A stretch of DNA of 64,000 bases from a plasmid (GCF_056746865.1 NZ_JBWKMP010000003.1); one strand, 5' to 3'; positions 4,062 to 45,410 are shown, counted from the first letter of the stretch. The notes: a model not told the origin generated them from the letters alone. Made by a program: numbers and translations.

Positions 4062-4071
4062 TTTTCTAACA
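4062..4071. promoter_or_regulatory. operator-like site TTTTCTAACA
   Basis: Member of the dispersed motif family (see findings). Lies in the leader of the 3006-4043 gene. Confidence 0.45.
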
Positions 4072-4146
4072 TAAAAGTCCTGTGACAAATTTATGCTGAA
4101 TAACAAGGTGAGTAAAGGATAAAACCGCTTTTTTTTGATTGTTCCT

Positions 4147-4156
4147 ATTAGAAAAT
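4147..4156. promoter_or_regulatory. operator-like site, variant (ATTAGAAAAT = complement of ATTTTCTAAT)
   Basis: Variant of the TTCTAACA core (TTCTAAT), in the same intergenic region. Confidence 0.3.
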
Positions 4157-4239
4157 GTAACCAGGAGCGGCTACCGCATGGCTGACGGATTTGCGAAGTG
4201 ATCTGGTCGGTGTTTTTTTGGGAAAAAAGTTCCGATTTC

Positions 4240-4271
4240 TAACTTTAAATAATTGGCATTATTTAAAGTTA
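4240..4271. other. rox: rox site (Dre recombinase target)
   Basis: TAACTTTAAATAATTGGCATTATTTAAAGTTA is the exact reverse complement of the published rox sequence TAACTTTAAATAATGCCAATTATTTAAAGTTA (14-bp inverted arms, 4-bp spacer). Confidence 0.9.
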
Positions 4272-4280
4272 GGCTATAAT
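4253..4280 (+). promoter_or_regulatory. sigma70-like promoter overlapping rox, reading toward dre
   Basis: TTGGCA (4253-4258, spanning the rox spacer), a 16-nt spacer, then TATAAT (4275-4280). Lies 144 nt upstream of the dre ATG. Confidence 0.4.
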
Positions 4281-4423
4281 CTCCAGTAAACAGGCAGTAT
4301 TGACAAGGATGAAAAATCATGCCTCGAATCAAAGGCTTGAATTTTGAAAATTAACTTATAACTACCCTGTCAGTTTTCTATTTTTCACGTAGCGTTATCT
4401 GTATATAGAGGTTTAATAGTTTC

Positions 4424-5452
4424 ATGGGTGAACTAGTTATCTCCGGCGGTTCTGGTGGTTTTCTGCGCGATATTGGCACCGAATACCAGGAAGCTGCAAA
4501 AAACTTTATGCAGTTCATGAACGACCAGGGAGCTTATGCTCCAAATACGCTTCGAGATCTCCGTCTGGTGTTTCATTCCTGGGCGCGGTGGTGTAATTCG
4601 CGCCAGCGCCCCTGGTTCCCGATTACGCCGGAAATGGCCCGCGAGTATCTTCTCCAGTTGCATGAGGCCGATCTGGCCTCGACCACCATTGATAAGCACT
4701 ATGCCATGCTTAACATGCTGCTTTCGCAATGTGGCCTCCCGCCGCTGTCGGACGATAAAAGTGTGTCTCTGGCCATGCGGCGCATCCGGCGCGAAGCGGC
4801 AACGGAAAAAGGCGAGCGAACAGGCCAGGCTATACCGTTGCGGTGGGATGATCTGAAATTGCTCGACGTGTTGCTGTCCCGTTCCGAGCGGCTGGTGGAC
4901 CTGCGCAATCGGGCGTTTCTCTTCGTGGCATACAATACCCTGATGCGTATGTCAGAAATCTCGCGCATCCGCGTCGGAGATCTGGACCAAACAGGTGACA
5001 CTGTAACGCTGCATATTTCACACACGAAGACCATCACGACCGCCGCCGGACTTGATAAGGTGCTTTCTCGTTACACTACCGCCGTACTGAACGACTGGCT
5101 GGAGGTGTCCGGACTTCGAGAACATCCGGACGCGGTGCTATTCCCGCCAATACACCGCAGTAATAAGGCCAGAATCACGACAACGCCCCTTACTGCACCT
5201 GCAATGGAGAAAATATTCAGCGATGCCTGGGGGTTGCTGAACAAACGAGATGCCACGCCGAACAAAGGAAGATACCGGACGTGGACAGGCCATAGTGCGC
5301 GTGTTGGTGCGGCAATTGATATGGCTGAGAAACAGGTGTCAATGGTCGAGATCATGCAGGAAGGTACATGGAAAAAGCCCGAAACACTTATGCGATATTT
5401 GCGCCGTAGCGGGGCATCCGTTGGTGCAAATAGTCGCCTGATGGACTCATAA
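4424..5452 (+). CDS. dre: Dre-type (Cre-family) tyrosine recombinase
   Basis: 342 aa. Cre-like layout with the catalytic-region motifs HSARVGAA and TLMRYLR. Matches my recollection of phage D6 Dre over almost the whole length. Adjacent to an exact rox site. Confidence 0.93.
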   Translation: MGELVISGGSGGFLRDIGTEYQEAAKNFMQFMNDQGAYAPNTLRDLRLVFHSWARWCNSRQRPWFPITPEMAREYLLQLHEADLASTTIDKHYAMLNMLLSQCGLPPLSDDKSVSLAMRRIRREAATEKGERTGQAIPLRWDDLKLLDVLLSRSERLVDLRNRAFLFVAYNTLMRMSEISRIRVGDLDQTGDTVTLHISHTKTITTAAGLDKVLSRYTTAVLNDWLEVSGLREHPDAVLFPPIHRSNKARITTTPLTAPAMEKIFSDAWGLLNKRDATPNKGRYRTWTGHSARVGAAIDMAEKQVSMVEIMQEGTWKKPETLMRYLRRSGASVGANSRLMDS

Positions 5453-5457
5453 ATTAA

Positions 5458-5467
5458 TTTTCTAACA
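5458..5467. promoter_or_regulatory. operator-like site TTTTCTAACA
   Basis: The 19-nt string ATAAATTAATTTTCTAACA is identical to the one after ref (25208-25226). Sits at the head of the 5525-9410 operon. Confidence 0.45.
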
Positions 5468-5497
5468 ACCTTTTTAGACAGTGCATTTTAATGTAAA

Positions 5498-5527
5498 GTA
5501 CCCTCGCCTATTGCGGAGGGTACTTTG
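5498..5527 (+). terminator. rho-independent terminator after dre
   Basis: GTACCCTC (5498-5505) pairs with GAGGGTAC (5516-5523), followed by TTTG. Confidence 0.6.
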
Positions 5528-5869
5528 CACAATCGTATTACGGAATCAAAACGCTTCACTGTTGACGGTTACACCATAACCTTCACTGCGGGCGTTAAGC
5601 GCGACCAGGCGGTCGTGGTGTTCGGTGTTATGACCGGACTTGATGCCGTTCCCGTATTTACCCTCGAAAAAAACTGGCGAAATCTGGAGGAAGCTGAACG
5701 CTACGTCCGGAAAGTAACCGTCATTGCTGCTGAAAAACTCCTGGCCCACTATCAGGAAAATTATCGCGCTATGACCGAGAAAATTAACCATGTTTTCACT
5801 CGCCCCACCAGCGGCTTCATTGCCCCTGATGCGAATGCCGGGCGCTATCCGGCAAGGGGGCGCAAATGA
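5525..5869 (+). CDS. hypothetical protein
   Basis: 114-aa ORF with a TTG start just after a GGAGGG that is also the terminator stem. The stop overlaps the next start (ATGA at 5866). The start is uncertain. Confidence 0.4.
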   Translation: MHNRITESKRFTVDGYTITFTAGVKRDQAVVVFGVMTGLDAVPVFTLEKNWRNLEEAERYVRKVTVIAAEKLLAHYQENYRAMTEKINHVFTRPTSGFIAPDANAGRYPARGRK

Positions 5870-6354
5870 AAACTTACTACCCATCCCTGAACTGTTATCC
5901 AACCACTAATCCTGAGCTGTCAGGGAAACTTCTGTCCCTCCTGGCTGATAGTCCTGATGAATGGCATAAGCCTGGTGATATCAACACACAGTTCCCTGAG
6001 TACGGGTGTATCCGCACCCGAAATGAGCTGAAGAACCTCATTGCTCACGGTTTTGTCCGTCACCGTAGCGGGAAAGGCTATCAGTTGGCTATCCCACAAG
6101 GAGAGGCAAGAGAACTCTTTGGCTATCGAGAAAGCCAGACGCAAGCGCGGGTGATCGCAGAAATTATCCGTAATGGCAGCGTCTATGCCCGCAAATTCTG
6201 GCTGTCTGGCGGTGGTGATGCATCACAGTTCTTGCGTGCTGTGCGATCGCTGGAGGAACAAGGTGTTATCGAGAATACCTGCGTCTCCGTTCCGACCGCT
6301 CCGCATATCAAACGCCGGATTTATACATTTACCCGGAGAGCTAAAAAGCAATGA
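5866..6354 (+). CDS. hypothetical protein (possible winged-helix repeats)
   Basis: 162 aa; ATGA-coupled at both ends (5866 and 6351). Confidence 0.6.
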   Translation: MKTYYPSLNCYPTTNPELSGKLLSLLADSPDEWHKPGDINTQFPEYGCIRTRNELKNLIAHGFVRHRSGKGYQLAIPQGEARELFGYRESQTQARVIAEIIRNGSVYARKFWLSGGGDASQFLRAVRSLEEQGVIENTCVSVPTAPHIKRRIYTFTRRAKKQ

Positions 6355-6845
6355 TTAACGTGAAAGTGAAACGCCTTCATCCGGCGGCAAAACTCCCCGT
6401 TTACGCCACCGCCGGATCGGCGGCGATGGATTTTGTTGCTGTTGAAATAACGCCGGGTATCGATAGCAACGGCGCTATTTCCTCAAGCTGGTGGGTGCAT
6501 ACCGGCCTCGCTATGGCGATCCCTCCTGGCTGGTGTCTGAAACTTTATCCTCGTTCCGGATTGGGCTGCAAAAAGCATACGCGCCTGGCTAACTGCGTAG
6601 GAATTATCGACTCCGATTATCGCGGTGAAATCAAAGCAAAACTGATTACAGATCCCGGTGGTGAAGGCGTTTGCCTCAAGCCAGGAATGGCGGTCATGCA
6701 AGGCATTTTTGAGCGTGTTGAACCGGTATCGCTGGTAGAAGTTGATGAACTCGATGAAACAGAGCGAGGTGCTGGTGGCTTTGGTAGCACATCGGAAGAC
6801 CGCATTGAAATCAAGCGTACACCGCTTCAGTACGCAAAGTTTTAA
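6351..6845 (+). CDS. dut: dUTP pyrophosphatase (trimeric dUTPase)
   Basis: Motifs AGSAAMD, PRSGLG, GIIDSDYRGE and C-terminal RGAGGFGST. Confidence 0.9.
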   Translation: MINVKVKRLHPAAKLPVYATAGSAAMDFVAVEITPGIDSNGAISSSWWVHTGLAMAIPPGWCLKLYPRSGLGCKKHTRLANCVGIIDSDYRGEIKAKLITDPGGEGVCLKPGMAVMQGIFERVEPVSLVEVDELDETERGAGGFGSTSEDRIEIKRTPLQYAKF

Positions 6846-6859
6846 GTAGAGGAAAGGCT

Positions 6860-7510
6860 ATGAATAACATGCCAACGAAAGAGCTTTTTAAGTTCCTTCC
6901 CAAATACAAAGCTCACAAAAACGTTAGTGCATCGAAAATTAAAAATGTTGTTATTTTCGGAGTAACTGATGCCCCACTTTGGGGCTGCATCGAACTCGTT
7001 GAACCAAAAGGGGCAACAGTTTGTGTTGACGCAATGTTTTTACAAAAACACCGACCAAAAACTGGCGGGTATCTGATCGTTTATGAAAACGGTTATCTGT
7101 TCTATGCCCCGGAGAAACCATTTGAGGAATGCTATGGCCTGGTTAACGACGCCTCCAAAAATGGAACCACGGTCATCATTACGGATGACAACGGCGTGAT
7201 GATTAATCTTACTGGGAGCGTAACTATTTCTGCTGGTGGCATCACCACCCAGCAAGAAGAAATCGACCTTGAAGCAGCCGACTTCTCTGATGCGCTAATG
7301 TGGTTGAAGGAAGGCAAGAAAGTTGCCCGACGCGAGTGGAAAGGCGAAAAGCAATTCTGCTGGTTAGTTCTCGCTGGAAGCGTCAATTTACACGGCATTC
7401 ACGTTCCTTATGGTGACCATTTTGTATTGAAAGATGCACAAAATATGGACAGCGTTTGGTTGCCGTCTGTGGATGATTTACTGGCCTGTGACTGGTTTGT
7501 TGTGGAGTGA
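6860..7510 (+). CDS. protein with C-terminal DUF2829-like domain (the family that includes Thoeris anti-defence Tad2)
   Basis: 216 aa. The C-terminal 75 aa (DFSDALMWLKEGKKVARREWKGEKQF...VDDLLACDWFVVE) fit the DUF2829 pattern: aromatic-x-A-L-x-x-G-K-K-V-R-R-x-W near the start and D-L-L-A-x-D-W near the end. Confidence 0.55.
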   Translation: MNNMPTKELFKFLPKYKAHKNVSASKIKNVVIFGVTDAPLWGCIELVEPKGATVCVDAMFLQKHRPKTGGYLIVYENGYLFYAPEKPFEECYGLVNDASKNGTTVIITDDNGVMINLTGSVTISAGGITTQQEEIDLEAADFSDALMWLKEGKKVARREWKGEKQFCWLVLAGSVNLHGIHVPYGDHFVLKDAQNMDSVWLPSVDDLLACDWFVVE

Positions 7511-7516
7511 TTTAAC

Positions 7517-8323
7517 GTGGAAAATACCAAGAACATTCAATATCGCTTGCGTAACGGCCTGCTGGTGGATGTAAACGATGATATGTCCCTGCCCTTTGCC
7601 ACCATTGAGCGAACCATCCTTACATACCTGGGCTTAGACGAAGAGTTAGATAGTGAGAATGGCATTGCTATCTGGCGTGACGGAAAAACGGGAGTCAGAC
7701 GTTTTATTACGGCAAGAGGCATTCAGTGCACACAGGAAGAATTGTTTGAACTGGCGCAGTCTTATGGATGCATCGCGTTAGATCCCCTGTATGACCCAGC
7801 CATAGCACAACAACTCATTCGAGAGCTGTCGCTTTCGGTCACGCCAATAATCTTCCGCCAGGGAACCTTAACCGGCACATGGCGTGTAGAACGCATCTCT
7901 AAATATCAGCCATATAATATCCATTTGAACGGCACTATTACTGGTGTGGATCAACCAGTAGCAGGTGAAAACAAAGACCTGGAACTTGCAGTAATGATGG
8001 CAGCTTGTCGCGTGCTTGGCCTGGGCAAGCAGATGTTTATCCATTTCCCAAACGGCGCGGAAGGCGAAGTAGAGCTGATTTCCTGCGACTTTTCCTTAAC
8101 CTGGATGCTTGATGAATTCCTGGACAAAACAGTATTCCGTGCTGAAGAACTGGATATGTATGTCACCTCAAGTATTCCTAATGACGTGAAAGTTGAGGCC
8201 ATCGCTACAGCCAGGGCGAAATGCCGTGCGGCGATTGCAGAACAGGCCAAAGAAGAACAGTCCGATGAAGTCGCGGCAGATGTGGAGGCAGAGGTAGCGG
8301 AGGATGCTGATGCTGACGCCTAA
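7517..8323 (+). CDS. hypothetical protein with acidic C-terminal tail
   Basis: 268 aa, GTG start. Tail EEQSDEVAADVEAEVAEDADADA. Overlaps the next gene by 20 nt. Confidence 0.55.
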   Translation: MENTKNIQYRLRNGLLVDVNDDMSLPFATIERTILTYLGLDEELDSENGIAIWRDGKTGVRRFITARGIQCTQEELFELAQSYGCIALDPLYDPAIAQQLIRELSLSVTPIIFRQGTLTGTWRVERISKYQPYNIHLNGTITGVDQPVAGENKDLELAVMMAACRVLGLGKQMFIHFPNGAEGEVELISCDFSLTWMLDEFLDKTVFRAEELDMYVTSSIPNDVKVEAIATARAKCRAAIAEQAKEEQSDEVAADVEAEVAEDADADA

Positions 8324-9410: not shown

Positions 9411-9417
9411 TAGTAGG

Positions 9418-9446: not shown

Positions 9447-9826
9447 CAAATATTGGAACCATATAGTTCACGTAGTTTATCCGCTACTGAAGATACGGGG
9501 ATTTCACCAGTTGCAGCCCCCACCGCAAGTTCCACCAGCACGGGAGAATCATATACCTGTATACCGTTACGGCGTAGAAATAGCAGCGCACTGTTTAGCG
9601 CGGTACGCTTATTGGCATCATTGAATATATGCCCTCTCGCTGTAGCCACCAGGTAGGTGGCGGAGACTTCGAAAAGGTCGGTGATCTCTTCGTAGGCAAC
9701 TCTGGCCTGAACTCTCCCGATAATGGCCTCTGCCCTGCCCGGATCTGACATGCCAGGCAGGCCGCCGTAGCGGCTTATATTCGCATCATGAAGCGCAATA
9801 AGTTCTTCCGGTGATATATGCCTCAT
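9446..9826 (-). CDS. doc: Doc toxin (Fic-fold kinase) of the phd-doc addiction module
   Basis: 126 aa. [22 protein letters not shown]... with the Doc-type Fic motif [12 protein letters not shown]. Matches P1 Doc as I recall it, apart from the C-terminal ~25 aa. Confidence 0.93.
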
Positions 9827-10047
9827 TATCGGTTAACCAGTTCCTTGTTGGTGGAGTCCAGGGTGTCAAACAGGGATGCAAATTCAGCATCCAGCGCCGC
9901 TTTTTTGTAGGCTTCGAAAGTAGCCTTGCTGACAATTACTGCTGGCTCACGGCCTCTGCGGGTGATTTCAACCTCTTCCCCGGCTTCAACATTGTTGAGC
10001 ACTTCAGAAAGGTTGCCACGCGCGGTACGGAAGTTAATGGATTGCAT
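9826..10047 (-). CDS. phd: Phd antitoxin
   Basis: 73 aa from [40 protein letters not shown]..., as in P1 Phd. The stop overlaps the doc start. Confidence 0.93.
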
Positions 10048-10119
10048 AAACACCTCGTGTACTCGTTATGTGTACACAATTATAAACTTCACAGGCATAA
10101 AGCACCAGCACTTTGCAGC

Positions 10120-10509
10120 TTAAATAACCGGACAATCATCAAATTCCCCACTTCGGGCATCATTGATGACATGAGTGATCACACCAAAAACAGCATTACT
10201 GCCCGTGTATCCATCGTCATCTACTGGTAACGCCTCTTTCTTCCCGGTGCTTAAGTCCTCCAGGTGCTGGCGCGGATACTTCCTGTATCTCTTTATGCGA
10301 TATTCACCCTCCATAGCGCACACAAGCAGAGAACCATCAACCGGAGTAAGCGAGGAATCAACCACCAGCAAAGCACCCTGCAATATTCCCTCACGGTGAT
10401 GGCTATCAGCTGCCCGCATGAAGTAGGTCGCTGAAGGATGTCTAATTATCTGCTGATCAAGAGAAATTCGGCTTTCAACATAATCCGCCGCAGGAGAAGG
10501 GAAGCCCAT
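10120..10509 (-). CDS. humD: UmuD'-like protein (P1 HumD homolog)
   Basis: 129 aa starting MGFPSPAADYVE, i.e. already at the position of cleaved UmuD'. S24 peptidase fold. A LexA box lies 19 nt upstream. Confidence 0.88.
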   Translation of the reverse strand: MGFPSPAADYVESRISLDQQIIRHPSATYFMRAADSHHREGILQGALLVVDSSLTPVDGSLLVCAMEGEYRIKRYRKYPRQHLEDLSTGKKEALPVDDDGYTGSNAVFGVITHVINDARSGEFDDCPVI

Positions 10510-10527
10510 AGCGTTTTACCTCAATGA

Positions 10528-10547
10528 TACTGTTTATTCATACAGTA
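10528..10547. promoter_or_regulatory. LexA (SOS) box
   Basis: TACTGTTTATTCATACAGTA fits the consensus TACTG-N10-CAGTA. Lies just upstream of humD. Confidence 0.8.
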
Positions 10548-10632
10548 TACATTGAAAAGGCATAGTTTGTGAAAGCGGGGTTTGTAGGCGCGCCACGCTG
10601 GGGGCTAATCACATTTCTCCCCCATCTTGCCG

Positions 10633-10884
10633 TTATTTTTTTGGTGCATCCTCGTTCTGATACACCGGATCGCTCCCTTTTGGCAACTGGAGGCTTAACT
10701 GCCGATAGTGCCGTAACCGTTCCATGAAATAGGTGCGCAGATTCTCTGGTTGCTCGCGGGCTACCTGTTCAGCTATGACAGGTATGTTCAATCGCTCTTT
10801 GTACGCCACACCGCTGGCAGCCAGATCAACGTTAACCTTATCCCGTTCTTCCTGACTTTTAGCTGCAATATTCCAGTCGCTCAT
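10633..10884 (-). CDS. hot: homolog of DNA polymerase III theta subunit (P1 Hot)
   Basis: 83 aa. [43 protein letters not shown] parallels E. coli HolE ([39 protein letters not shown]). Confidence 0.85.
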
Positions 10885-10886
10885 AT

Positions 10887-17718: not shown

Positions 17719-18447
17719 TTATTCCTGAATGCGCTTAAACTCGATTACCCACACCCAGGGATTAGCGTTCCAGCTTTCTTCACCATAGATGGATTCCCAC
17801 AGGCGCTGGAACGCAACCTTGGCCATTGCGAAATCCCCCTTGGGAGTAAGGAATGTTCCCGGGTGATCAGGAAGCAAACTTCCAGCAGGCGGAACGCCCT
17901 CAGCCCTTGCATCGCATTCGCTGATATCGTTCAACCGTTCAACGCGCACGTTGGTAATTTCCAACAGAATGCGTGATGCCCATCGCGGCATGTGAATTGA
18001 TGGACGCCACCCACCATCAAACTTTTCATTCACAGTGTGAGGTTTCCAGTCGGCATCATCGGGTATCGACCATAAGCCGTAATCACCAGGTTTTTGCTCG
18101 CAACTGGCCCGATAAATCCTTGCTGCGTTCTTCTCATCGCCACGACAAAGGTTGTCGTTCCAGTCCACACTGCAACCATCCTCATTGCCTAATATCGCCC
18201 ATGTTTCACGAACCCAAATTCGATCGCCGACGATACCAAATGGGCAATTGAAAACACTGCTTACACCATCAGCCCCGTACCACTGAAAACCTGCACCAAT
18301 TTTTCTAACCATCACTGGTGCTTCTGGACCAACTTCCGCAGGCTGATTTTTCATTATCCGCCGCGTCTGCGTTTTCCTTCCTTCGAGGATGGCCCGGACC
18401 ATCTCATCGTTAAAAATCATCCCGCGTTCTTTCATTTTTTGATCCAC
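17719..18447 (-). CDS. ASCH/PUA-like fold phage protein
   Basis: 242 aa. The N-terminal motif MVRAILEGRKTQTRR recurs in ASCH-like phage proteins. Confidence 0.55.
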   Translation of the reverse strand: MDQKMKERGMIFNDEMVRAILEGRKTQTRRIMKNQPAEVGPEAPVMVRKIGAGFQWYGADGVSSVFNCPFGIVGDRIWVRETWAILGNEDGCSVDWNDNLCRGDEKNAARIYRASCEQKPGDYGLWSIPDDADWKPHTVNEKFDGGWRPSIHMPRWASRILLEITNVRVERLNDISECDARAEGVPPAGSLLPDHPGTFLTPKGDFAMAKVAFQRLWESIYGEESWNANPWVWVIEFKRIQE

Positions 18448-19488: not shown

Positions 19489-19522
19489 ATGTTAGAAAAT
19501 TAAAATCAATATTCTAACACGG
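19489..19522. promoter_or_regulatory. inverted pair of operator-like sites
   Basis: ATGTTAGAAAAT (19489-19500) and ATTCTAACAC (19511-19520) face each other, 42 nt upstream of the 19447 start. Confidence 0.5.
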
Positions 19523-24564: not shown

Positions 24565-24596
24565 GTGTTAGAAAATCAATTTTGATTTTCTAACAC
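24565..24596. promoter_or_regulatory. palindromic double operator between divergent operons
   Basis: GTGTTAGAAAATCAA-TT-TTGATTTTCTAACAC: perfect 15-bp inverted arms. Lies between the minus-strand early operon and ref. Confidence 0.6.
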
Positions 24597-24640: not shown

Positions 24641-25216
24641 ATGAAGCAAAGCTATTGGGAGAAACAGACACAAAAAGCCCTGCAAAAACTGGCTGATCCG
24701 AAATGGCGGGAGGAACAAAGGGCAAAGCGTCTTCAGCAAGCTCAACGCCAGCAGCAGCGTGCGCGAGAAAAAGCCGCATCGCCTGAATATCGGCAAAAGA
24801 AAATTGAAAAAGCGAAGCAATATGAACAGCGAAGAAAAGAGAAGGCCGCTTCTGCTCCTGTCAAAAAAACTCGCGCGTCACGCGGCCTGAAAGGCAGAAC
24901 ACTCACAGCAGATGAGCGCCGGATACAAACTGCCATCGGTGCTCTCCCCTGCATTGCCTGCCATATGCACGGACAGCATAGCCCTGTGGTATCCCTGCAC
25001 CACATCTTCGGGAGAACAGCAGAAAACGCGCATAAATACGTCCTCCCTTTGTGTAAATGGCACCATCAACACGCAGCGCCAGCAGAGATCCGCGAGCAAT
25101 ACCCCTGGTTGGTTCCTGTTCATGCTGATGGAAAAATAGGCGGCAAAGCAGATTTCAGGCGGCACAATGCTGATGAAATGACGTTGTATCAGATGGTGAC
25201 TGAATTAATAAATTAA
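24641..25216 (+). CDS. ref: Ref-type HNH endonuclease (RecA-dependent nuclease of P1)
   Basis: 191 aa from MKQSYWEK. LKGRTLTADERRIQTAIGALPCIACHMHG...SLHHI.GRT...LPLCKWHHQHAAPAEIREQYPWLVPVHADG matches P1 Ref as I recall it. Confidence 0.85.
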   Translation: MKQSYWEKQTQKALQKLADPKWREEQRAKRLQQAQRQQQRAREKAASPEYRQKKIEKAKQYEQRRKEKAASAPVKKTRASRGLKGRTLTADERRIQTAIGALPCIACHMHGQHSPVVSLHHIFGRTAENAHKYVLPLCKWHHQHAAPAEIREQYPWLVPVHADGKIGGKADFRRHNADEMTLYQMVTELIN

Positions 25217-25226
25217 TTTTCTAACA
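25217..25226. promoter_or_regulatory. operator-like site TTTTCTAACA
   Basis: Immediately after the ref stop, at the head of the immI-like region. Confidence 0.45.
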
Positions 25227-25715: not shown

Positions 25716-25820
25716 GAAAACACACAGTTGCGCCCTGGCATTATCGTGGGGTATATTTCTACGGCACCTTAGAAAAACGGGTGCCGGGATTGGAACCCCG
25801 GATAATGTCAAAGGCGACAC

Positions 25821-25843
25821 AGACGCCGAACGCGTCTTTTTTT
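25821..25843 (+). terminator. rho-independent terminator
   Basis: AGACGC (25821-25826) pairs with GCGTCT (25832-25837), followed by a run of T. Confidence 0.65.
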
Positions 25844-25884
25844 GTGTCATGCCATCGCACAGCCATACTTAGCGTTTAGCTCAG

Positions 25885-26002
25885 AGATCAATGGTAGTGC
25901 TGGCTGGGCTGCCGAAAGGCAGGCCGGTTCCCTTTGACGCCGGTAGTTCCAACCCAGTCAGTGCTACCGCCATTGAGATTGGAACCTCACGCGGTAGCTC
26001 CT
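25885..26002 (+). ncRNA. candidate c4-like regulatory RNA (element B) directly upstream of icd
   Basis: GAAA-tetraloop hairpin at 25907-25925. Helices 25946-25952/25979-25985 and 25963-25970/25991-25998. Its position relative to icd and ant matches P1 c4. Confidence 0.4.
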
Positions 26003-26028
26003 TAACTTAGTCAAAGGAGGCTGCCAAT

Positions 26029-26244
26029 ATGGCTACTATCCCTACCCCAACTCATTCTGAATTTATCTGGCGTTTCTATTCCTGCCAAAAACACCTTTAT
26101 ATCTGCGTAATGGCTGCTACCGAAGCAGAGGCGCGCTCATACCTTCCCGAAGAACCCTGCATTTTTGCTGCTCGCTTCACTCTTGATGCGATGGAGATCC
26201 TCAATTACTGGAATCTGCCAATGAACTGCGTGGAGGTGCACTGA
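26029..26244 (+). CDS. icd: Icd-like cell-division inhibitor
   Basis: 71 aa. FIWRFYSC...ICVMAATEAEARSYLPEEPCIFAARF fits the Icd-family pattern (aromatic-rich start, A-x-x-E-A-E-A-R, FAAR). The stop overlaps the next ATG. Confidence 0.65.
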   Translation: MATIPTPTHSEFIWRFYSCQKHLYICVMAATEAEARSYLPEEPCIFAARFTLDAMEILNYWNLPMNCVEVH

Positions 26245-27185
26245 TGAATCTGTCCATCTCTCAAAAAGCGACAATGACCAGCATTGAGATCGCGGAACTG
26301 GTAGGAAGTCGCCCAGATAGTGTGAAGAGAACTATCGAAACACTGGCTAAAAAGAGTGTGATTCAATTTCCACAATCTGTGGAAATTGAAAATAAACAAT
26401 CAGTTGGCCCTCGTCGATTTTCCAAGGCTTACATCTTTGAAGGCGAACAAGGAAAACGAGACAGCATCATTGTCGTCGCGCAGCTCTCTCCGGAATTTAC
26501 CGCCCGGCTGGTGGACCGCTGGCGCGAACTGGAGAATGCCCGGGTACAGTTAAAATCCAAAGCCGAAATCCTGGCCGAAATGGCGCAAATGCATCTTGAG
26601 CATGAACGCCGGATCAACGCCGTTAATGCCCAGGTAGCCGAAGTATCGGCACAAGTGTCCAGGGTCACCGAAACACTTGAGCAGATCAAGAAAGGCAATA
26701 TTCCAGAAGGCTACATTGGCTATCGCCAGTTGGCGGCAAAATGCGGCCTGACTGAAGCCAAATGCCGCAACCTGGTCAACGCTTACCGGATACCCACTGA
26801 TACGCATGAGTTTTTAACTCCCGACGGTTTGCTTGCGCGACGCTCCATTGTGGCCCTGGCCCCCTTCCGGAAAGCCTTTAAGCAGGTTATGTCGGAGGCA
26901 GAACCACGTAACAAACGCTGGTATCATCCCAGGATGGGGCTATTTCAGGCCATTCACCATCCTGTGCCTGAAAGTCCAAAGGCAAACCTGTCGTTGCATA
27001 CCGCCAGAGAGAAGATTAAAACAGGGTATGCAACCGTATGCCGTCGAGCATCCTGGCCTGAAAGTGTCTGGGTATGGCCCGAAAGAGGCTCACGGAAAAA
27101 CTGGCGCACCATTCGCGACGGCAAGATCTGTGCGATTGATTTACAGCCAGAAGATGTAGCAGCGACCGACTGGATTGTTAGTTAA
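26244..27185 (+). CDS. Rha-family regulatory protein / putative antirepressor
   Basis: 313 aa. The N-terminus MTSIEIAELVGSRPDSVKRTIETL fits the Phage_pRha pattern. Occupies the ant slot after icd. The C-terminal 60 aa are weakly DUF2829-like. Confidence 0.6.
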   Translation: MNLSISQKATMTSIEIAELVGSRPDSVKRTIETLAKKSVIQFPQSVEIENKQSVGPRRFSKAYIFEGEQGKRDSIIVVAQLSPEFTARLVDRWRELENARVQLKSKAEILAEMAQMHLEHERRINAVNAQVAEVSAQVSRVTETLEQIKKGNIPEGYIGYRQLAAKCGLTEAKCRNLVNAYRIPTDTHEFLTPDGLLARRSIVALAPFRKAFKQVMSEAEPRNKRWYHPRMGLFQAIHHPVPESPKANLSLHTAREKIKTGYATVCRRASWPESVWVWPERGSRKNWRTIRDGKICAIDLQPEDVAATDWIVS

Positions 27186-27192
27186 TAGATTT

Positions 27193-35910: not shown

Positions 35911-35957
35911 GCAAAACTGTGTTAGATAATTGAGTTTTATTTTCTAACACAGTTTTG
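35911..35957. promoter_or_regulatory. inverted pair of operator-like sites within a 16-bp-arm palindrome
   Basis: GCAAAACTGTGTTAGA...TCTAACACAGTTTTGC. Lies just upstream of rdgC. Confidence 0.55.
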
Positions 35958-41106: not shown

Positions 41107-41121
41107 GAAGATGTAGATTTG

Positions 41122-41487
41122 TTAATCAGGGAGTGAGTTTGCCAAATTCTGTGCAGAGCGGCTTTTCGAAACGCCAGGTTTTTTAACATCCGCTGAGGCT
41201 GAGGGGTTTCCTTCAGGGTTTTCCCGAACTTCAGGCGAAATTTCAAGAAATGAAACCAGCATTTTTCTGATCACTTCAGGGCTATTATCACCGGATAAAA
41301 GCGATGCCAACATGGGAGGTAATCTGCTATCAACCTCGCCAAGAGCGATACCTGCAAGCATCGCTGTGCGCGCCATATCATTGCGATCTCTTAATGGATG
41401 GCCCTCAAGTTTTGCATCAGCATATTGCTCACTGGCGTTAAGACCAGGACGAAGATAAAACAATACTTTTCGACGTTCCTGAGACAT
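41122..41487 (-). CDS. parR: ParR-like centromere-binding adaptor
   Basis: 121 aa. MSQERRKVLFYLRPGLNASEQ...RNDMARTAMLAGIAL parallels R1 ParR (RRTIAFKLNPDVNQTD...RLNRAALTAGLAL). Lies directly downstream of parM. Confidence 0.7.
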   Translation of the reverse strand: MSQERRKVLFYLRPGLNASEQYADAKLEGHPLRDRNDMARTAMLAGIALGEVDSRLPPMLASLLSGDNSPEVIRKMLVSFLEISPEVRENPEGNPSASADVKKPGVSKSRSAQNLANSLPD

Positions 41488-41497
41488 GGCAACCTCA

Positions 41498-42457
41498 TCA
41501 ACCGATAGATTTTAGACCATAGACAAGAGCAAGTTGTGGATCATCAGCAACGAAAAACCTATCGTCACGAATGTTTACCTGCTCACGGATAGCATCAGCA
41601 ACAAGCGGCGCGCCGCCACCAATGACCATAACATGCGTGTATCCTTTGAAATCACTGATCACATCCAGTACGCGTGTACGGAGTCGTTCTATGCTTGACG
41701 AAATGGCTTTCTTAACATCATCAATAGCAGACGGATCGTTAATATTGTCGGTCAAATAATCCTCATCATCACGATTAATGATTAATTGATCGACATTATA
41801 ATTAGAGGTTTCGGTATTCGCTTTTGCAAGTGCCTGTCTGACCTCTTTAGTTACCAGCGAAACGCCGAGATTAGAATCGCCAAATACGCGAGAAACGGCG
41901 GTCATTTGCCCGGCGACCATCGACACATCCAGAGTAGTCCCACCAAGATCAACAATAAGCACAGAATGCGCTGGCACAAGGCTGTCGCACAGACCGATCC
42001 CTGCGGGTATTGACTCCGGGCGCACAGTCACTTTTTTGATAGTAAAAACCTGACCTTTGTTAAGGGTGACTGGTCGCATCAGGCTGGCCTTTTTCCGCTC
42101 AATATTTTTCATGTTGTATTGTGCGTCGTCGTCATAAAACTCTGCCAGTGGCAACGTGACAACTATTTCCACTTCTTGAGGCTCAATGCCACTTGTAAGC
42201 AGGGCATGATGAACAGCAAGCACATTAAGCGGGCTGTATTGCCATTCAACGTTATTCGTCGGCAGCACATCCGGCGAGATCAAGTCATATGAATATTTTT
42301 CGTCATCAATGATGTAGTTAAACGGCTTTCCTGCGCCAAATGTGGCGGACCATCCACGTTTAAAACTGTTCGGACAGATATGGGTTCGAGTTTCCCCGTC
42401 TTGTTCCCACAGCATTTTGATATTGGTAGAACCATCGTCGATAAAAATGCGCATCAT
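41498..42457 (-). CDS. parM: ParM/StbA actin-like segregation ATPase
   Basis: Starts MMRIFIDDGSTNIKM. Internal IVDLGGTTLDV. The track ORF begins 57 nt further upstream. Confidence 0.9.
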   Translation of the reverse strand: MMRIFIDDGSTNIKMLWEQDGETRTHICPNSFKRGWSATFGAGKPFNYIIDDEKYSYDLISPDVLPTNNVEWQYSPLNVLAVHHALLTSGIEPQEVEIVVTLPLAEFYDDDAQYNMKNIERKKASLMRPVTLNKGQVFTIKKVTVRPESIPAGIGLCDSLVPAHSVLIVDLGGTTLDVSMVAGQMTAVSRVFGDSNLGVSLVTKEVRQALAKANTETSNYNVDQLIINRDDEDYLTDNINDPSAIDDVKKAISSSIERLRTRVLDVISDFKGYTHVMVIGGGAPLVADAIREQVNIRDDRFFVADDPQLALVYGLKSIG

Positions 42458-42470
42458 ATTGCTCCACTTC

Positions 42471-42660
42471 TGAGACACATTTGAGAAAGAATTGAATTTT
42501 ATATGAGAAAACAAAATAAGACCAGAAGTTAGATAGCGTAAAAAGCATCAAACAAGAGACGTAAGAGAGACGCAAAAGAGACTTAGATGATACATGATGT
42601 ACCCACGATACCCGTTTGAGACAAATCAGAGACAAATGTGAGAAGTAAGAAATCTGAAGA
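42471..42660. repeat. parC: parC-like centromere/promoter: (A/T)GAGAC hexamers phased at 11 bp
   Basis: AGAGAC at 42555, 42566 and 42577. TGAGAC/AGAGAC/TGAGAA at 42617, 42628 and 42639. One extra TGAGAC at 42471. The two triplets are separated by about 35 bp, upstream of parM. Confidence 0.55.
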
Positions 42661-42706
42661 GTGAAAATCACAAAGTGGAGAAGATTTAAGAAAAAGGAGG
42701 TGTTAG

Positions 42707-42991
42707 ATGAGTGCAATAGCGACCAGTGACACAGTTTGTTCTGGTCATGGAGGATTCCCTCCGCGACCTGTAGCAGAAACAGTTTCCTGGTTTACCGTAA
42801 ATGGAAAGCCAGTGGTTGTAGATGGGGGAGCGTTCCCCAGCCATACAGACGGAAATAGCGCGCACCCCGGATCAGCCGTATCGACGCGCTCATGGTTTGC
42901 AATAGGCGGGAAAGGAGTTGTTTGTGTGGGAGATCCCCTTTCTTGTGGCTCAGTCATCGCCAATGGTGAGGCAATTTTTCAGGTGTCATAA
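42707..42991 (+). CDS. PAAR-domain spike-tip protein
   Basis: 94 aa. Gly/His/Cys-rich PAAR-like repeats (CSGHGGFPP, FPSHTDGNSAHPG, VGDPLSCGS). Confidence 0.7.
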   Translation: MSAIATSDTVCSGHGGFPPRPVAETVSWFTVNGKPVVVDGGAFPSHTDGNSAHPGSAVSTRSWFAIGGKGVVCVGDPLSCGSVIANGEAIFQVS

Positions 42992-43785
42992 TGCTTGATT
43001 CAATCGCTGAAGTTAATGCATTCAAAATTCTAAATGCATCAGGCACAACTACGCCTGCATCTATCACGCTAAGTAAAACAGCGTCATCCAATGCCAGTTC
43101 TCTGGAAGAGAATATCCAGGCTCTTATCCTGAAGGATAAAGCATACCCGGCGTCGGTGGTTTCATGGGTCAATCAGCTTTCTGTCTTTTCAGAACAACTG
43201 AAAACTGTCAGTGCAGAAGCAACCAATTTAGCCGACTCGCTGTCTCCGTATACTTCGCCAACTGAATTACTTCAGATGAAAATTGGCTGGGAATGTTACG
43301 TCAAAGGTAATGAGTTATCTCCTGCGCCAGAATTTGCTCTCGTAACAGTTATGGGAGATACCCTGCATCCGCAATCGCTTATTGACGCGTTGGCAGCATT
43401 TGAACTGGTGCCAATCACTTCAGCCATGACCGCTATAAATGCAAAAGTTCAGGCGTCAAGCGGGGAGGCTTCAGGCAACGGAAGTTCCACCGGAACAACA
43501 CAGCAACCAGCACTAACAGAAGAAGAGATCAAAGCACTAAAAGACGCTGTGGAAGCAGCAACAGAACAAATAAATGCAATAAACAACACGAGCAGTAGTC
43601 TCTCAACACTTGTACAGCAAGTTAAGGACTCTACCGGAAAAGCCAAACAGGGACTGGAGAATGCTGTAGCTATTACGTTAACCGGTTCTCTACTGGGCGA
43701 TGAAGTAATGAGTCCGGCAATCAGTTTGATCATGCCACAAGGTGTGATCGATGCGCTCCAAAACAACACTAAAAAGGAACCATAA
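42991..43785 (+). CDS. hypothetical protein
   Basis: 264 aa; ATG overlaps the PAAR stop (TAATG). Confidence 0.55.
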   Translation: MLDSIAEVNAFKILNASGTTTPASITLSKTASSNASSLEENIQALILKDKAYPASVVSWVNQLSVFSEQLKTVSAEATNLADSLSPYTSPTELLQMKIGWECYVKGNELSPAPEFALVTVMGDTLHPQSLIDALAAFELVPITSAMTAINAKVQASSGEASGNGSSTGTTQQPALTEEEIKALKDAVEAATEQINAINNTSSSLSTLVQQVKDSTGKAKQGLENAVAITLTGSLLGDEVMSPAISLIMPQGVIDALQNNTKKEP

Positions 43786-43855
43786 CCACACCATTTAAGC
43801 CCATAAATGGTTACAAATTGGTACACATATCACACCAACAAAAAATCTGAAGAGG

Positions 43856-44314
43856 ATGGTTTTGAAAAAGATAATTTTGATAGTAGTTGCGCTTTTAGCC
43901 ATTTATGGAATTTACCGTACTACGGCGGCAGTTATCGATCACATCAGGTATATCCGTTCCCTGGAAGACTCAAAATCACAACTTGAAAGCGAGAACAACA
44001 CGCTTTCTACCGCATTGCAGTTAAGTGAAAAATCGCGATCTGCCATGATGGCTGAAAACGAAAGAATTAAAACACTGGAGAAGGAGTACCAGCGCAAAAC
44101 AGCAGAACTGAATACCAGCCTGATCAAACAACGGGAGGAAAGCCAGAATGAAATCAATCGTCTTGAAACTGCGTTACGCAATGCCGGGGTTAATGATGTG
44201 CGTGTGCCTGATGACGTTATCAGGATGCAGCGGGAACGGGCAAAAGAAATCAATCAGCGTGCCAATGCAAATTACCGTAGAAGCCACCAGCAAACCGCAG
44301 GGAAATCTGATTGA
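43856..44314 (+). CDS. i-spanin (Rz-like)
   Basis: 152 aa. N-terminal TM (IILIVVALLAIYGIY) followed by a long coiled coil. Confidence 0.6.
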   Translation: MVLKKIILIVVALLAIYGIYRTTAAVIDHIRYIRSLEDSKSQLESENNTLSTALQLSEKSRSAMMAENERIKTLEKEYQRKTAELNTSLIKQREESQNEINRLETALRNAGVNDVRVPDDVIRMQRERAKEINQRANANYRRSHQQTAGKSD

Positions 44315-44528
44315 TTATACCCCTTGCATAGTGCCAGAGGACACGCCTGTGCTGTTAAACAAGTATCCGGCATACACTGAACAGTTATTCAGCACTATCG
44401 ATGAATGCAACCAACGAAACGCACTGAATAACCAAAGGAATAGGGAGATTTGGGAAGGGAAGGGGGTTAAGGCTCCTGAAGCCAGATGTCCTGGCTGTCA
44501 GCTTCTTCGAAACCGTGACAGACGTTAA
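44148..44528 (+). CDS. o-spanin (Rz1-like lipoprotein), overlapped architecture
   Basis: +1-frame ORF starting inside the i-spanin gene. Lipobox LMTLSGCS. The true start may be an internal Met (44181-44196). Confidence 0.5.
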   Translation: MKSIVLKLRYAMPGLMMCVCLMTLSGCSGNGQKKSISVPMQITVEATSKPQGNLIDYTPCIVPEDTPVLLNKYPAYTEQLFSTIDECNQRNALNNQRNREIWEGKGVKAPEARCPGCQLLRNRDRR

Positions 44529-44949
44529 AGTCACTCAAGCGATACTGGCGCTGACGGCCTCTATTTCGCTCATGCCAATGCATATATCCACCAGCAAATG
44601 CCAGCGGACAATCGCTATAGTCGATGTAGCCAATACCATTACCCAAACGCGCTTCGCGCGCCCCGGCTTTCCAGGACAGCAGAAAAGAGTCACGATCTGC
44701 CAGCATGACTACAAAATCATCCAGATCGCCTATGCAGTGAAGAATGCCTGCCTTGCATAACTGTTTGAGTGCCTTGGACTGACTCAGGATGTCTTCACCG
44801 TAATACTGAAAACAATCATCAACAATAGCGGGATAGCCAGCGGGTGGATTCAGGCTGGTTGGTATAGCTGACGCGATAGCCAGCATTAAACGATATTGTG
44901 TTTTCGATGGGTTCGCGTGACTCATGTTTCCTCTACTCACTGTCTCCAT
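44467..44949 (-). CDS. hypothetical protein
   Basis: 160-aa ORF, overlapping the upstream gene by 13 nt. Confidence 0.5.
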   Translation of the reverse strand: METVSRGNMSHANPSKTQYRLMLAIASAIPTSLNPPAGYPAIVDDCFQYYGEDILSQSKALKQLCKAGILHCIGDLDDFVVMLADRDSFLLSWKAGAREARLGNGIGYIDYSDCPLAFAGGYMHWHERNRGRQRQYRLSDFNVCHGFEEADSQDIWLQEP

Positions 44950-45329
44950 GCATTTTTCAGCTCCGGAATATCAGCCATTTCAACCAGCTTCCGAAGCCCC
45001 GCGCTGACCTTCCCATTACCAACCGCAGCAAGCCAATCCCTTACTGACTTCGGCATATAAAGAGTGGTCGTTACAGGATCTTCCACTCTTACAGGCGTGC
45101 CAATTTGAGGCCACTTAACAGATGCCAAAACGTCAGAAGGCGGGGTAAGCGCGGGAACATTAAGAATAGCCTTTCCTGAATGGAGAATCACGATTCGTTC
45201 AGCCAGGGAAAGAATGTCTCTTTCAGTAAGGATTGATGACAGTTGAGCTTCTACAAGGCATCTGCTGCTTGTATTCAGAGAATGGCTTTTAGCACCATTT
45301 TTGTATGAAACGAAGATCTTGTACGCCAT
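44937..45329 (-). CDS. hypothetical protein, first gene leaving an operator cluster
   Basis: 130-aa ORF. The start abuts operator-like sites at 45331-45410. Confidence 0.55.
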   Translation of the reverse strand: MAYKIFVSYKNGAKSHSLNTSSRCLVEAQLSSILTERDILSLAERIVILHSGKAILNVPALTPPSDVLASVKWPQIGTPVRVEDPVTTTLYMPKSVRDWLAAVGNGKVSAGLRKLVEMADIPELKNAWRQ

Positions 45330-45330
45330 T

Positions 45331-45410
45331 TGTTCTAATGTTTTATGTTAGAAAATTAAGATTAAACCATACTAACACAAGATTGTTAACGAAAATTATT
45401 TTTCTAATGC
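45331..45410. promoter_or_regulatory. cluster of four operator-like sites in a divergent control region
   Basis: TGTTCTAATG (45331-45340), ATGTTAGAAAAT (45345-45356), TACTAACACA (45369-45378), TTTTTCTAAT (45399-45408). Confidence 0.5.

Follow-up and report, generated by a model that had tools for sequence, protein, structure and literature searches.

Gene content and the c1 homologue

We analyzed a window of 64,000 nucleotides, the whole stretch of plasmid DNA considered here, and identified it as a D6-like P1-family phage-plasmid, a relative of phage P1. The window order is pacB (1460-2968, plus strand), c1 (3006-4043, minus strand), rox (approximately 4233-4264), and dre (4424-5452, plus strand), with c1 lying between pacB and rox/dre and transcribed away from the recombinase gene; the same order is found in P1. 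Phage D6 immC (c1, rox, dre; AY753669, MF356679) has the same gene order and the same recurrent word in the same places, but the window c1 is a distinct allele, its product being 80% identical to D6 C1. Copies at least 99% identical to the window allele were present in only 6 of 153 matching PLSDB records, and the D6 allele class accounted for 96 records.

The candidate repressor gene of the original prediction proved to be a true, distant homologue of P1 C1. BLASTP aligned its product with P1 C1 at 21% identity over 241 aa (E = 1e-7), and PHROG 1678 includes the window protein (E = 5.9e-159), P1 C1 (2.6e-140), and the Citrobacter homologue (7.2e-72). Residues 9-244 match NCBIfam NF041318 (phage_rep_C1, E = 1.8e-5) at 24.4 bits against a cutoff of 500, which does not qualify the protein as a P1 C1 equivalog, and 12 of 12 aligned family members match the same model at a permissive E ≤ 10. 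A tblastn search of phage records with the c1 product returned D6 only and not P1, and no Pfam-A domain was identified in the local library.

A recurrent asymmetric word

The exact word TTTTCTAACA was present in 8 copies in the window against 0.16 expected, a count reached by none of 100 dinucleotide-preserving shuffles, and allowing one mismatch gave 19 copies (4.7 expected). The information content of the site spans 17 positions and is asymmetric, with a 5' half low in information. The 17-bp position weight matrix (PWM) had 11 matches of at least 15 bits in the window, compared with a mean of 0.31 (maximum 3) in 100 order-2 Markov simulations, and 10 matches of at least 20 bits, compared with 0.00 in the simulations. 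When k-mers of the window were ranked by over-representation without prior bias, the top 11-mer was ATTTTCTAACA (7 copies vs 0.038 expected), and at shorter k only Chi sites outranked the word. As a positive control, the same method returned the experimentally known P1 operator ATTGCTCTAAT as the top P1 word; it yielded TTTCTAACA in the window, D6, NZ_CP104667, the Shigella plasmid, and the Enterobacter plasmid.

The dispersed word on which the original prediction was built is thus real, and its frequency lies far above that of both the shuffles and the simulations. All of the positions then listed carry the word or one of its variants, with small shifts in some coordinates: 4147-4156 is really 4146-4155, and the two inverted pairs lie exactly at 19490-19499/19510-19519 and 35920-35929/35940-35949. 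The 15-bp-arm palindrome at 24565-24596, the 16-bp-arm palindrome near 35913-35956, and the identity of the 19-nt string ATAAATTAATTTTCTAACA at 5449-5467 and 25208-25226 were all correct, and the intragenic near-match at 18301-18310 is present with a PWM score below 9 bits. Four sites had been proposed in 45331-45408, where we found one strong and one moderate site along with two weak core variants, so that only 1-2 are convincing.

Placement of the sites in the window

The 11 strong sites fall at 7 loci, with 3 loci formed by 30-bp inverted pairs and 5 sites being single and non-palindromic (Table 1). Each of these bivalent pairs consists of two inverted 17-mers overlapping by 4 bp at their A/T-rich ends, and the orientation of single sites is mixed (5 vs 3). 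As had been predicted, the strong sites are intergenic without exception (11 of 11), and coding sequence makes up 87% of the window; the only overlaps are with gene ends, where one site covers the last 2 bases of dre and another the last 7 of ref. Promoter scans gave weak matches at these loci (8-9 of 12 consensus positions), so that overlap between site and promoter is putative.

Table 1. Putative operators and associated features of the window (., inverted pair; bits, PWM score)
Feature	Position	Strand	Details
c1 homologue	3006-4043	-	345 aa, putative D6-type master prophage repressor
Putative c1-proximal operator GATTTAGTTTTCTAACA	4055-4071	+	23.0 bits; 12 bp upstream of c1 start codon
Putative c1 promoter TTTACT-N17-TAAATT	4088-4116	-	Between the two putative c1 operators
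Putative c1-distal operator variant GGTTACATTTTCTAATA	4146-4162	-	16.3 bits
Putative operator at dre end	5451-5467	+	27.6 bits; 58 bp before orf117-orf116-dut operon
Putative bivalent operator, gap between ppp and DUF968-pdcB-like gene	19490-19519	.	26.9 + 22.8 bits
Putative bivalent operator, divergent region between ref and first minus-strand early operon	24566-24595	.	26.0 + 25.3 bits
Putative operator over last 7 bases of ref	25210-25226	+	27.6 bits; head of immI-like operon
immI-like module	25764-27185	+	isrK-like RNA 25764-25842; C4 antisense RNA 25887-25974; icd 26029-26244; antirepressor 26244-27185
Weak candidate AAATCTATTAACTAACA	27176-27192	-	14.8 bits; end of antirepressor gene; not counted as operator
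Putative bivalent operator before rdgC (hrdC)	35920-35949	.	21.9 + 24.0 bits; 15 bp upstream of rdgC; heads methylase operon
Putative operator, divergent region between minus-strand ORF (44937-45329) and capsid gene	45346-45362	-	25.8 bits
Weaker operator-like site AAATTATTTTTCTAATG	45393-45409	+	13.7 bits

Next to c1, the core TTTATGTTAGAAAAC of the proximal site does not vary among the window, D6, and the Shigella plasmid and differs by one change in the Enterobacter element, and TTTTCTAA of the distal site is conserved in 3 of 4 aligned elements. The putative c1 promoter between them is a weak consensus match (8 of 12), with both hexamers lying in blocks conserved across four elements. The position at the end of dre is also filled in D6 (89948) and the Shigella plasmid (75794), and in the Citrobacter element (31259) it holds the word TTCTAAGG. 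The pair at 19490-19519, overlapped on the minus strand by a weak promoter-like TTGATT-N17-TATTTT, has syntenic counterparts in D6 (80709-80738), the Shigella plasmid (6940-6969), and the Enterobacter plasmid (27553).

Several of the loci, that of c1 included, have counterparts among the annotated protein_bind features of P1 (Oc1a-e, Oref, Omat, Oc4, and Odmt), with which the sites of the window and its complete relative were compared. The pair at 24566-24595, a conserved island in the four-element alignment, is the counterpart of Oref. The site at 25210-25226 corresponds in position both to Omat, which also overlaps the end of ref, and to Oc4, which heads the c4-icd-ant operon; downstream of it lie the C4 RNA, icd, and the antirepressor gene, as in P1 immI, with Rfam scores of 77.1 bits for C4 and 61.3 bits for isrK and 63% identity between the window Icd and P1 Icd. 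The weak candidate at 27176-27192 recurs in NZ_CP104667 and scores only 9.1 bits in D6. The pair at 35920-35949 is the counterpart of Odmt, located before uhr-hrdC-dmt, and is syntenic in the D6, Shigella, Enterobacter, and Citrobacter elements, the last with TTCTAAGG. For the strong site in front of the capsid gene, no counterpart is annotated in P1; D6 (54201), the Shigella plasmid (25698), and the Enterobacter plasmid (10852) each have a site at the syntenic position. At the place matching the weaker neighboring site at 45393-45409, the Shigella plasmid has a 19.6-bit site (25743).

Conservation and change of the word among relatives

In the complete relative, the PWM identified 19 sites at about 13 loci. 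This element and D6 have extra sites before lpa, before repL, just after repL, and around pmgS, positions outside the window that were foretold from the P1 model and match P1 Olpa, OrepL, Orlf, and OpmgRa/b. Sites of at least 15 bits were absent before lpa in the Shigella plasmid and before c1 in the Enterobacter plasmid. Phylogenetic footprints show the operator words as invariant islands amid diverging intergenic DNA; the D6 GenBank records (AY753669, MF356679) have no operators annotated.

The word differs by repressor clade. P1 uses GCTCTAAT, D6-clade elements, with repressors 40-100% identical, use TTTCTAACA, and the Citrobacter element, with a repressor approximately 30% identical, uses TTCTAAGG at the same positions; its 8 intergenic copies of AATTCTAAGG are syntenic with the sites at c1, after the recombinase gene, and at ref, rdgC, and repL. 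The Pantoea element has only two intergenic copies of TTCTAAGG, so the third word class is thinly supported. No matches to the D6-type PWM were found in the P1, Citrobacter, or Pantoea elements. This co-variation of word and repressor is based on seven elements and three words and is confounded by overall phylogeny.

Comparison with P1 and other systems

The system resembles that of P1 (and P7), in which a homologous repressor is encoded at the same map position and recognizes a 17-bp asymmetric operator (PMC8546580). Like P1, the D6-type elements have monovalent sites plus inverted overlapping bivalent sites, and the totals are close: the complete relative has approximately 19 sites, and P1 has 20 that are annotated and 22 that have been reported. 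The placement is P1-like, as originally proposed, with sites coinciding with annotated P1 operator positions; controlled units common to the two comprise c1, ref, the end of ref, immI, repL, the region after repL, hrdC/dmt, pmgR/S, and lpa, and the D6-type elements have extra sites before the capsid gene and after the recombinase gene.

In contrast, the D6-type operator word appears unrelated or barely related to that of P1. The P1 word GCTCTAAT has 0 copies in the window, and even when up to 3 mismatches are allowed the P1 consensus ATTGCTCTAATAAATTT has 0 window matches. The original prediction suggested that the TCTAA(T/C)A core is homologous to the P1 operator, which is plausible because a third clade uses TTCTAAGG but falls short of being established. 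Aligning the TCTAA cores gives opposite bivalent geometries (TCTAA-N8-TTAGA in P1 vs TTAGA-N16-TCTAA in the D6 type). The alternative alignment that preserves geometry, TGTTAGAAAATTAATTT with ATTGCTCTAATAAATTT, has 9 of 17 positions in common, most of them within the A/T tail. Bivalent sites are 30 bp with a 4-bp overlap in the D6 type and 28 bp with a 6-bp overlap in P1 (Obanab, Oc1ab), and the D6-type repressor has a C-terminal helical extension, its overall length exceeding that of P1 C1 by approximately 62 residues (345 vs 283 aa).

Many short asymmetric repressor sites dispersed in short intergenic gaps are also a feature of mycobacteriophage L5, where the gp71 "stoperators" of approximately 13 bp are strongly biased in orientation relative to transcription and act on elongation. 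Unlike these, the D6-type sites are mixed in orientation and located at operon heads, and the repressor family is unrelated.

In tblastn searches, neither the window nor the complete relative had a match at E < 0.01 to the antirepressor Coi or the corepressor Lxc, of which very small or divergent analogues are possible, and homologues of ImcA/B, KilA, Ban, or Ssb were not found. Lxc was likewise not detected in a D6-like plasmid (PMC6799933).

An unexpected possible likeness came from structure prediction, in which the modeled repressor appears to resemble only E. coli Tus, a monomeric replication terminator protein that binds asymmetric Ter DNA, with TM-scores of only 0.34-0.40. The sequence does not place the repressor in the Tus family (PF05472, TIGR02648): there was no Pfam match, TIGR02648 matched weakly in only 1 of 12 family members (E = 0.013), and the hhalign probability against Tus was approximately 1%, with no detectable sequence relationship. 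Tus-Ter arrests replication forks, whereas the role proposed for D6-type C1 is transcriptional repression.

Interpretation and alternatives

The observed sites are enriched, characteristically placed, conserved, and syntenic with P1 operators, and their word changes from one repressor clade to another. On this evidence, the 17-bp word very probably represents the operator set of the prophage master repressor, by which the virus would be kept silent. We consider it highly likely that the D6-type C1 encoded at 3006-4043 has the asymmetric site A-w-w-T-T-r-A-TTTTCTAACA as its operator, within a circuit of P1 immC/immI design. The regulon reading of the original prediction is supported to this extent, each part of it that the sequence could test having proved right, and we infer from the sequence both the identity of C1 as the binder and the repression of adjacent promoters.

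A real regulatory site bound by a different protein, whether encoded by the element or a nucleoid or regulatory protein of the host, appears unlikely. The repressor has no recognizable DNA-binding motif in Pfam, several further genes of relatives are annotated as HTH or "transcriptional regulator" genes, and phylogeny confounds the match of word to C1 clade, all of which would leave room for another binder. However, the sites reproduce the experimentally defined C1 operator positions of P1, including the idiosyncratic ones at the end of ref and just after repL, and flank c1 itself as autoregulation needs; further, the elements share E. coli and close enterobacterial hosts, so that a word recognized by a host factor should not differ from one element to the next.

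We give still less credence to the palindromic copies acting mainly as RNA hairpins, such as bidirectional terminators or processing sites, or as recombination or module-boundary sequences. A terminator scan does flag 24565-24596, with a 14-pair stem followed by T-rich sequence, and several sites lie exactly at gene ends and module junctions beside mosaic P1-similar segments. Yet five strong sites with the same 17-bp word are single and non-palindromic, the stems are A/T-rich (4 of 14 pairs G-C), and sites precede the leading genes of operons, among them c1, lpa, and repL. In D6 and the Enterobacter element, conservation is limited to one half of the ref pair, as would suit a protein half-site but not a hairpin. 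As for a chance effect of composition, intergenic DNA is A/T-rich and half of the site carries little information, but the shuffle and PWM controls given above, together with the exact word being kept at orthologous positions despite diverged flanking DNA, have already refuted this reading, and its probability is close to nil.

Proposed C1 circuit

With C1 as the preferred binder and AAATTAATTTTCTAACA taken as its predicted target, C1 in the plasmid prophage would bind on or beside the promoters of several units, both at single sites and at the 30-bp bivalent operators formed by inverted overlapping pairs. The units within the window would be c1 itself, the dut operon distal to dre, two of the early operons, both long, ref, the immI-like c4-icd-ant antirepressor operon, and the rdgC-methylase operon, and beyond it lpa, repL, a second icd-ant operon, and pmgS. 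Such occupancy would hold lytic replication, the late-gene activator, and the antirepressors off and would autoregulate c1, in a D6-type circuit that apparently works without the P1 accessory proteins Coi and Lxc. Since this predicted circuit combines the immC/immI design of P1 with a different DNA specificity, the element would be heteroimmune to P1, and the putative regulon would be an expected, heteroimmune version of the well-known P1 circuit.

Identity of the window and its repressor gene

The first 20 kb of the window matched Escherichia phage D6 at 87% identity with 38% query coverage, D6-like E. coli plasmids far better (up to 98% identity with 69% coverage), and P1, P7, SJ46, and RCS47 at ~95% identity in patches only. 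Gene order in the window is that of the deposited D6 immC record, with lpa-pacA-pacB, c1 on the opposite strand, rox, and dre. Given this similarity and gene order, the window is, as judged from sequence, ~64 kb out of a roughly 92-kb D6-like phage-plasmid of the P1 family, with NZ_CP104667.1 as its nearest complete record. P1-like mosaic segments are embedded in the otherwise D6-like backbone.

The original prediction proposed a repressor at 3006-4043, and its product was confirmed as a C1 homologue, included with P1 C1 and the Citrobacter homologue in PHROG 1678 with very strong scores and aligning with P1 C1 at 21% identity over 241 residues (pairwise E=1e-7). The NCBIfam model phage_rep_C1 was matched by 12 of 12 aligned family members, the window protein scoring 24 bits where the equivalog cutoff is 500. 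These matches, with the sub-cutoff score, mark the ORF as a genuine but distant C1-family member that maps where c1 does without being an equivalog. The local library yielded no Pfam-A domain, sequence comparison found no relative with a solved structure, and tblastn against phage records returned nothing beyond D6. Beyond ~residue 243, the protein has predicted helices without counterpart in P1 C1, and it is ~62 residues longer overall. The repressor family was identified in 153 PLSDB records, with 6 records at ≥99% identity to the window protein, 96 at 80-90%, 26 at 60-80%, and 24 at <60%.

Dispersed sites at regulatory positions

We identified a dispersed 17-bp site in the window, carrying the D6-type word AAATTAATTTTCTAACA, placed at regulatory positions and conserved among relatives. 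The exact string TTTTCTAACA occurs in 8 copies vs 0.16 expected, and in 19 vs 4.7 expected with one mismatch. Aligned copies hold information across 17 positions (A-w-w-T-T-r-A-T-T-T-T-C-T-A-A-C-A), with no conservation past the final A. The matrix of this site (PWM) recovered 11 window sites at ≥15 bits and 10 at ≥20 bits, whereas 100 order-2 Markov simulations gave a mean of 0.31 (maximum 3) and none, respectively. All 11 are intergenic although the window is 87% coding, with two overlapping gene ends (the last 2 bases of dre and the last 7 of ref). In a prior-free scan of all k-mers, ATTTTCTAACA was the top over-represented 11-mer (7 vs 0.038), and at shorter k the word was outranked by Chi sites only. 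Chance origin of the repeated word, under which its frequency would not exceed expectation, is excluded by these controls. The originally predicted coordinates were correct to within 1 base, and both palindromes, as well as the 19-mer shared by the regions after dre and ref, were found as described; the four sites proposed at 45331-45408 comprise a strong one, a moderate one, and two weak ones.

Each inverted pair is a 30-bp unit in which the A/T-rich ends of two 17-mers share 4 bp and the conserved TGTTAGAAAA arms point outward. Single sites face the downstream genes in mixed orientation (5 vs 3), and we claim no stoperator-like polarity. The sites lie next to c1, in the ref divergent region, at the ref end, before rdgC (hrdC) and the methylases, and beside ppp. 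The post-ref site heads an immI-like operon, followed 3' by an isrK-like RNA, a C4 antisense RNA, icd, and an antirepressor gene, the same layout as in P1 immI; the window Icd is 63% identical to that of P1. The isrK-like Hfq-binding RNA is directly 5' of the C4 RNA, inside the immI-like leader.

Promoter scans around the sites gave weak matches, and no specific -35/-10 overlaps are claimed because these reached only 8-9/12 of consensus. The sequence TTTACT-N17-TAAATT between the two c1 sites is conserved in orthologous intergenic alignments and is plausibly, if tentatively, the c1 promoter. No LexA box was found near c1 or the antirepressor genes in the window. A perfect LexA-box pattern is present in the humD-like regulatory region, within a segment 94.5% identical to P1, where a LexA site is annotated in the equivalent P1 region. 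Further, ATTTCTAAC immediately precedes rox, so that an operator-like core overlaps the rox left arm, at a score below the PWM threshold.

Coordinates of features in the window and of the Citrobacter word
Feature	Coordinates	Strand	Detail
c1 homologue	3006-4043	-	345 aa
Single sites	4055-4071, 4146-4162, 5451-5467, 25210-25226, 45346-45362		PWM
Inverted pairs	19490-19519, 24566-24595, 35920-35949		two 17-mers each
P1-like mosaic segments	9456-10562, 10630-10886, 17753-18437		94-99% identical to P1; doc/phd/humD, hot, pmgT
GATC short inverted-repeat cluster	~405-545		inside pacA; GGGATCATT...AATGATCCC, twice
Chi examples, GCTGGTGG	369, 1463, 2866	+	
Chi examples, GCTGGTGG	1579, 3971	-	
rox, TAACTTTAAATAATTGGCATTATTTAAAGTTA	4228-4264		
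LexA-box pattern, CTGTTTATTCATACAG	10530-10545		
AAAGGAGAGT	14405, 14628, 22076, 23457	-	plus-strand coordinates
isrK-like RNA	25764-25842		Rfam 61 bits
C4 antisense RNA	25887-25974		Rfam 77 bits
RepB-family gene	52909-53697		
(A/C)AGGTGTA(A/G)(A/T)(A/T)TTGCCCTCAA	52619-52628, 52845-52854, 53711-53720, 53733-53742, 53787-53796		
Citrobacter AATTCTAAGG copies	9838, 23422, 23602, 29750, 31259, 34477, 36018, 44269		NZ_CP114569.1

Other repeated sequences

Chi sites number 42 in the window vs 3.4 expected (25 plus, 17 minus), and an excess was present in all relatives examined, with 81 in the Citrobacter and 93 in the Pantoea plasmid. Repeats flanking the RepB-family gene are presumably plasmid replicon iterons. 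The top repeated word of the Pantoea plasmid was rejected as an operator, being a RepB iteron. GATC repeats inside pacA resemble the clustered Dam-methylated hexamers at the pac site of P1. The motif AAAGGAGAGT, with 5 copies vs 0.07 expected, recurs just 5' of several early-gene start codons on the minus strand; it is a ribosome-binding-site context that these genes share and that is typical of gene cassettes of lambdoid origin.

Correspondence with P1 operators

Operators annotated in P1 number 20, the RefSeq record naming Oc1a-e, Oref, Omat, Ossb, Oc4, OrepL, Orlf, Odmt, Obanab, O26, Oppp, OpmgRa/b, OpmgT, and Olpa, and 22 have been reported (PMC8546580). The original prediction likened the window to P1, with scattered operators including one before ref, and the site positions do match annotated, experimentally defined P1 operators; in P1, Omat lies over the ref end, Orlf just after repL, and Odmt before uhr-hrdC-dmt. 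Under the P1 model, lpa and the lytic replicon, which lie beyond the window, should also have operators, and the complete relative and D6 were scanned with the PWM. The original prediction had proposed such a scan of the complete element and its relatives, and sites were found at the predicted lpa, repL, and pmgS positions and at syntenic loci: lpa is immediately preceded by an inverted pair, repL has a 25-bit site on its upstream side and a 28-bit one just past its end, the latter at the head of a second icd-antirepressor operon, and pmgS has sites on either side. The complete relative had 19 sites at ~13 loci.

P1 differs in having another operator word and a shorter repressor than the D6-type element. 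Its bivalent operators, in which two inverted sites overlap (Obanab, Oc1ab), follow the same design but with a 6-bp overlap and a span of 28 bp vs 30 bp here. Two D6-type site positions, one before the capsid divergent region and the other following the recombinase gene, are without annotated P1 counterpart, and no homologues of Coi, Lxc, ImcA/B, KilA, Ban, or Ssb were detected in the D6-type element. Lxc was likewise undetected in a D6-like plasmid, and a second c4/icd-like region was reported (PMC6799933). The pmgT-like gene is 98.7% identical to P1, with homology ending at P1 84498, ~190 bp short of OpmgT (84293-84309), and there is therefore no like-for-like intergenic operator comparison.

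Operator words across repressor clades

Different words were identified at syntenic sites, and thus each of three repressor clades has its own word at shared regulatory positions. No D6-type site of ≥15 bits was found in P1 or the Citrobacter or Pantoea plasmids, and no P1-type site within three mismatches in the window. The Citrobacter word lies upstream of c1, ref, rdgC, and a repL-like gene and just after the recombinase gene, at positions syntenic with D6-type and P1 operators, and is a probable third operator specificity. In orthologous intergenic alignments, the words are invariant islands, and TTTATGTTAGAAAAC upstream of c1 has one change even in the element with 40% repressor identity.

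Repressor identity and repeated words in the elements compared
Element	Repressor identity to window	Word
P1 (positive control)	21%	ATTGCTCTAAT, 11 copies vs 0.029
D6	80%	TTTCTAACA core
NZ_CP104667 (nearest relative)		TTTCTAACA core
Shigella plasmid	68%	TTTCTAACA core; 14 PWM matches, syntenic
Enterobacter plasmid	40%	TTTCTAACA core; 9 PWM matches, syntenic
Citrobacter plasmid (NZ_CP114569.1)	~30%	AATTCTAAGG, 8 of 8 copies intergenic
Pantoea plasmid	~30%	2 intergenic TTCTAAGG copies, before c1 and lpa

A TCTAA(T/C)A core had been proposed as common to P1 and the window. This reading is favoured by the third word TTCTAAGG, which also contains TCTAA, giving the alignment GC-TCTAA-TA, TT-TCTAA-CA, and AT-TCTAA-GG, but under it the bivalent sites have opposite geometry, TCTAA-N8-TTAGA in P1 vs TTAGA-N16-TCTAA in the window. 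An alignment preserving the geometry (specific arm out, A/T tail in) pairs TGTTAGAAAATTAATTT with ATTGCTCTAATAAATTT at 9/17 positions, mainly in the tail. On this evidence, neither alignment of the two words is preferred.

Proposed mechanism and alternatives

The sites, their placement, and their conservation are observed; by analogy with P1 (PMC8546580), we infer that C1 binds them and that binding represses, with prophage-made C1 occupying the dispersed sites. Bound C1 would block promoters serving the early and antirepressor operons, ref, the lytic replication gene repL, and the late-activator gene lpa. The two sites bracketing the c1 promoter would autoregulate c1, possibly via looping, which is involved in C1 autoregulation in P1. 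The element would be heteroimmune to P1 because its operator word differs.

Binding by a protein other than C1 is formally conceivable but fits poorly with the P1-like site map and with the sites at c1 itself. Function as a hairpin or terminator would suit the palindromic copies alone and is contradicted both by the single sites and by conservation of only a half-site in D6 and the Enterobacter element. The P1/D6 C1 family has long been noted as without recognisable DNA-binding motif.

A possible Tus-like fold

The repressor was modelled with AlphaFold2 (pLDDT 81.6, pTM 0.50) and compared with solved structures using Foldseek, and E. coli Tus was the only significant match. The best four matches were Tus-Ter complexes (E=3.4e-8 to 1.1e-6, probability 1.00, ~304 aligned columns), and the next match after Tus had E=0.38; a search of a viral structure library with the model matched nothing. 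Alignment of the C1 family to Tus by hhalign had a statistically insignificant probability of ~1%, Tus was absent from a profile search of PDB sequences, and TIGR02648 matched 1 of 12 family members, weakly. No papers linking C1 and Tus were found in the literature searched. Two alternating basic residues, R157 and R159, are unchanged across all 12 aligned family members and fall within a long predicted strand; in the insignificant hhalign match they align with Tus K229/K231, in the region of the DNA-contacting interdomain strands of Tus.

The idea is attractive because Tus and P1 C1 are both described as monomers on asymmetric DNA sites. We tentatively propose that the P1/D6 C1 family may have a Tus-like fold, a reading of the model that we hold at a little below even confidence, in which a monomer would read the asymmetric 17-bp operator by a Tus-style cleft and specificity (GCTCTAAT / TTTCTAACA / TTCTAAGG) would be reprogrammed on the scaffold, giving heteroimmune lineages.

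Significance

The type of system is textbook P1 biology, D6 c1 being already annotated as a repressor, and a P1 specialist would expect such a regulon in a heteroimmune relative. Less expected is the possible Tus-like fold. The operator word, site map, and clade-specific words are unannotated in the D6 and plasmid records, and the full-text literature searched contained nothing relevant on the motif string or D6 operators, although a prior description is possible. Phage-plasmids of the D6 type occur commonly in E. coli, Salmonella, and Shigella, and the operator word offers a sequence-only readout of immunity groups and the early regulon and a forecast of mutually excluding elements. It is also a reagent for induction and titration experiments; in P1, multicopy operator DNA reduced lysogeny frequency at low MOI (PMC8546580). 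The P1, D6-type, and Citrobacter-type words provide three natural specificity variants on one repressor scaffold in which specificity change can be studied.
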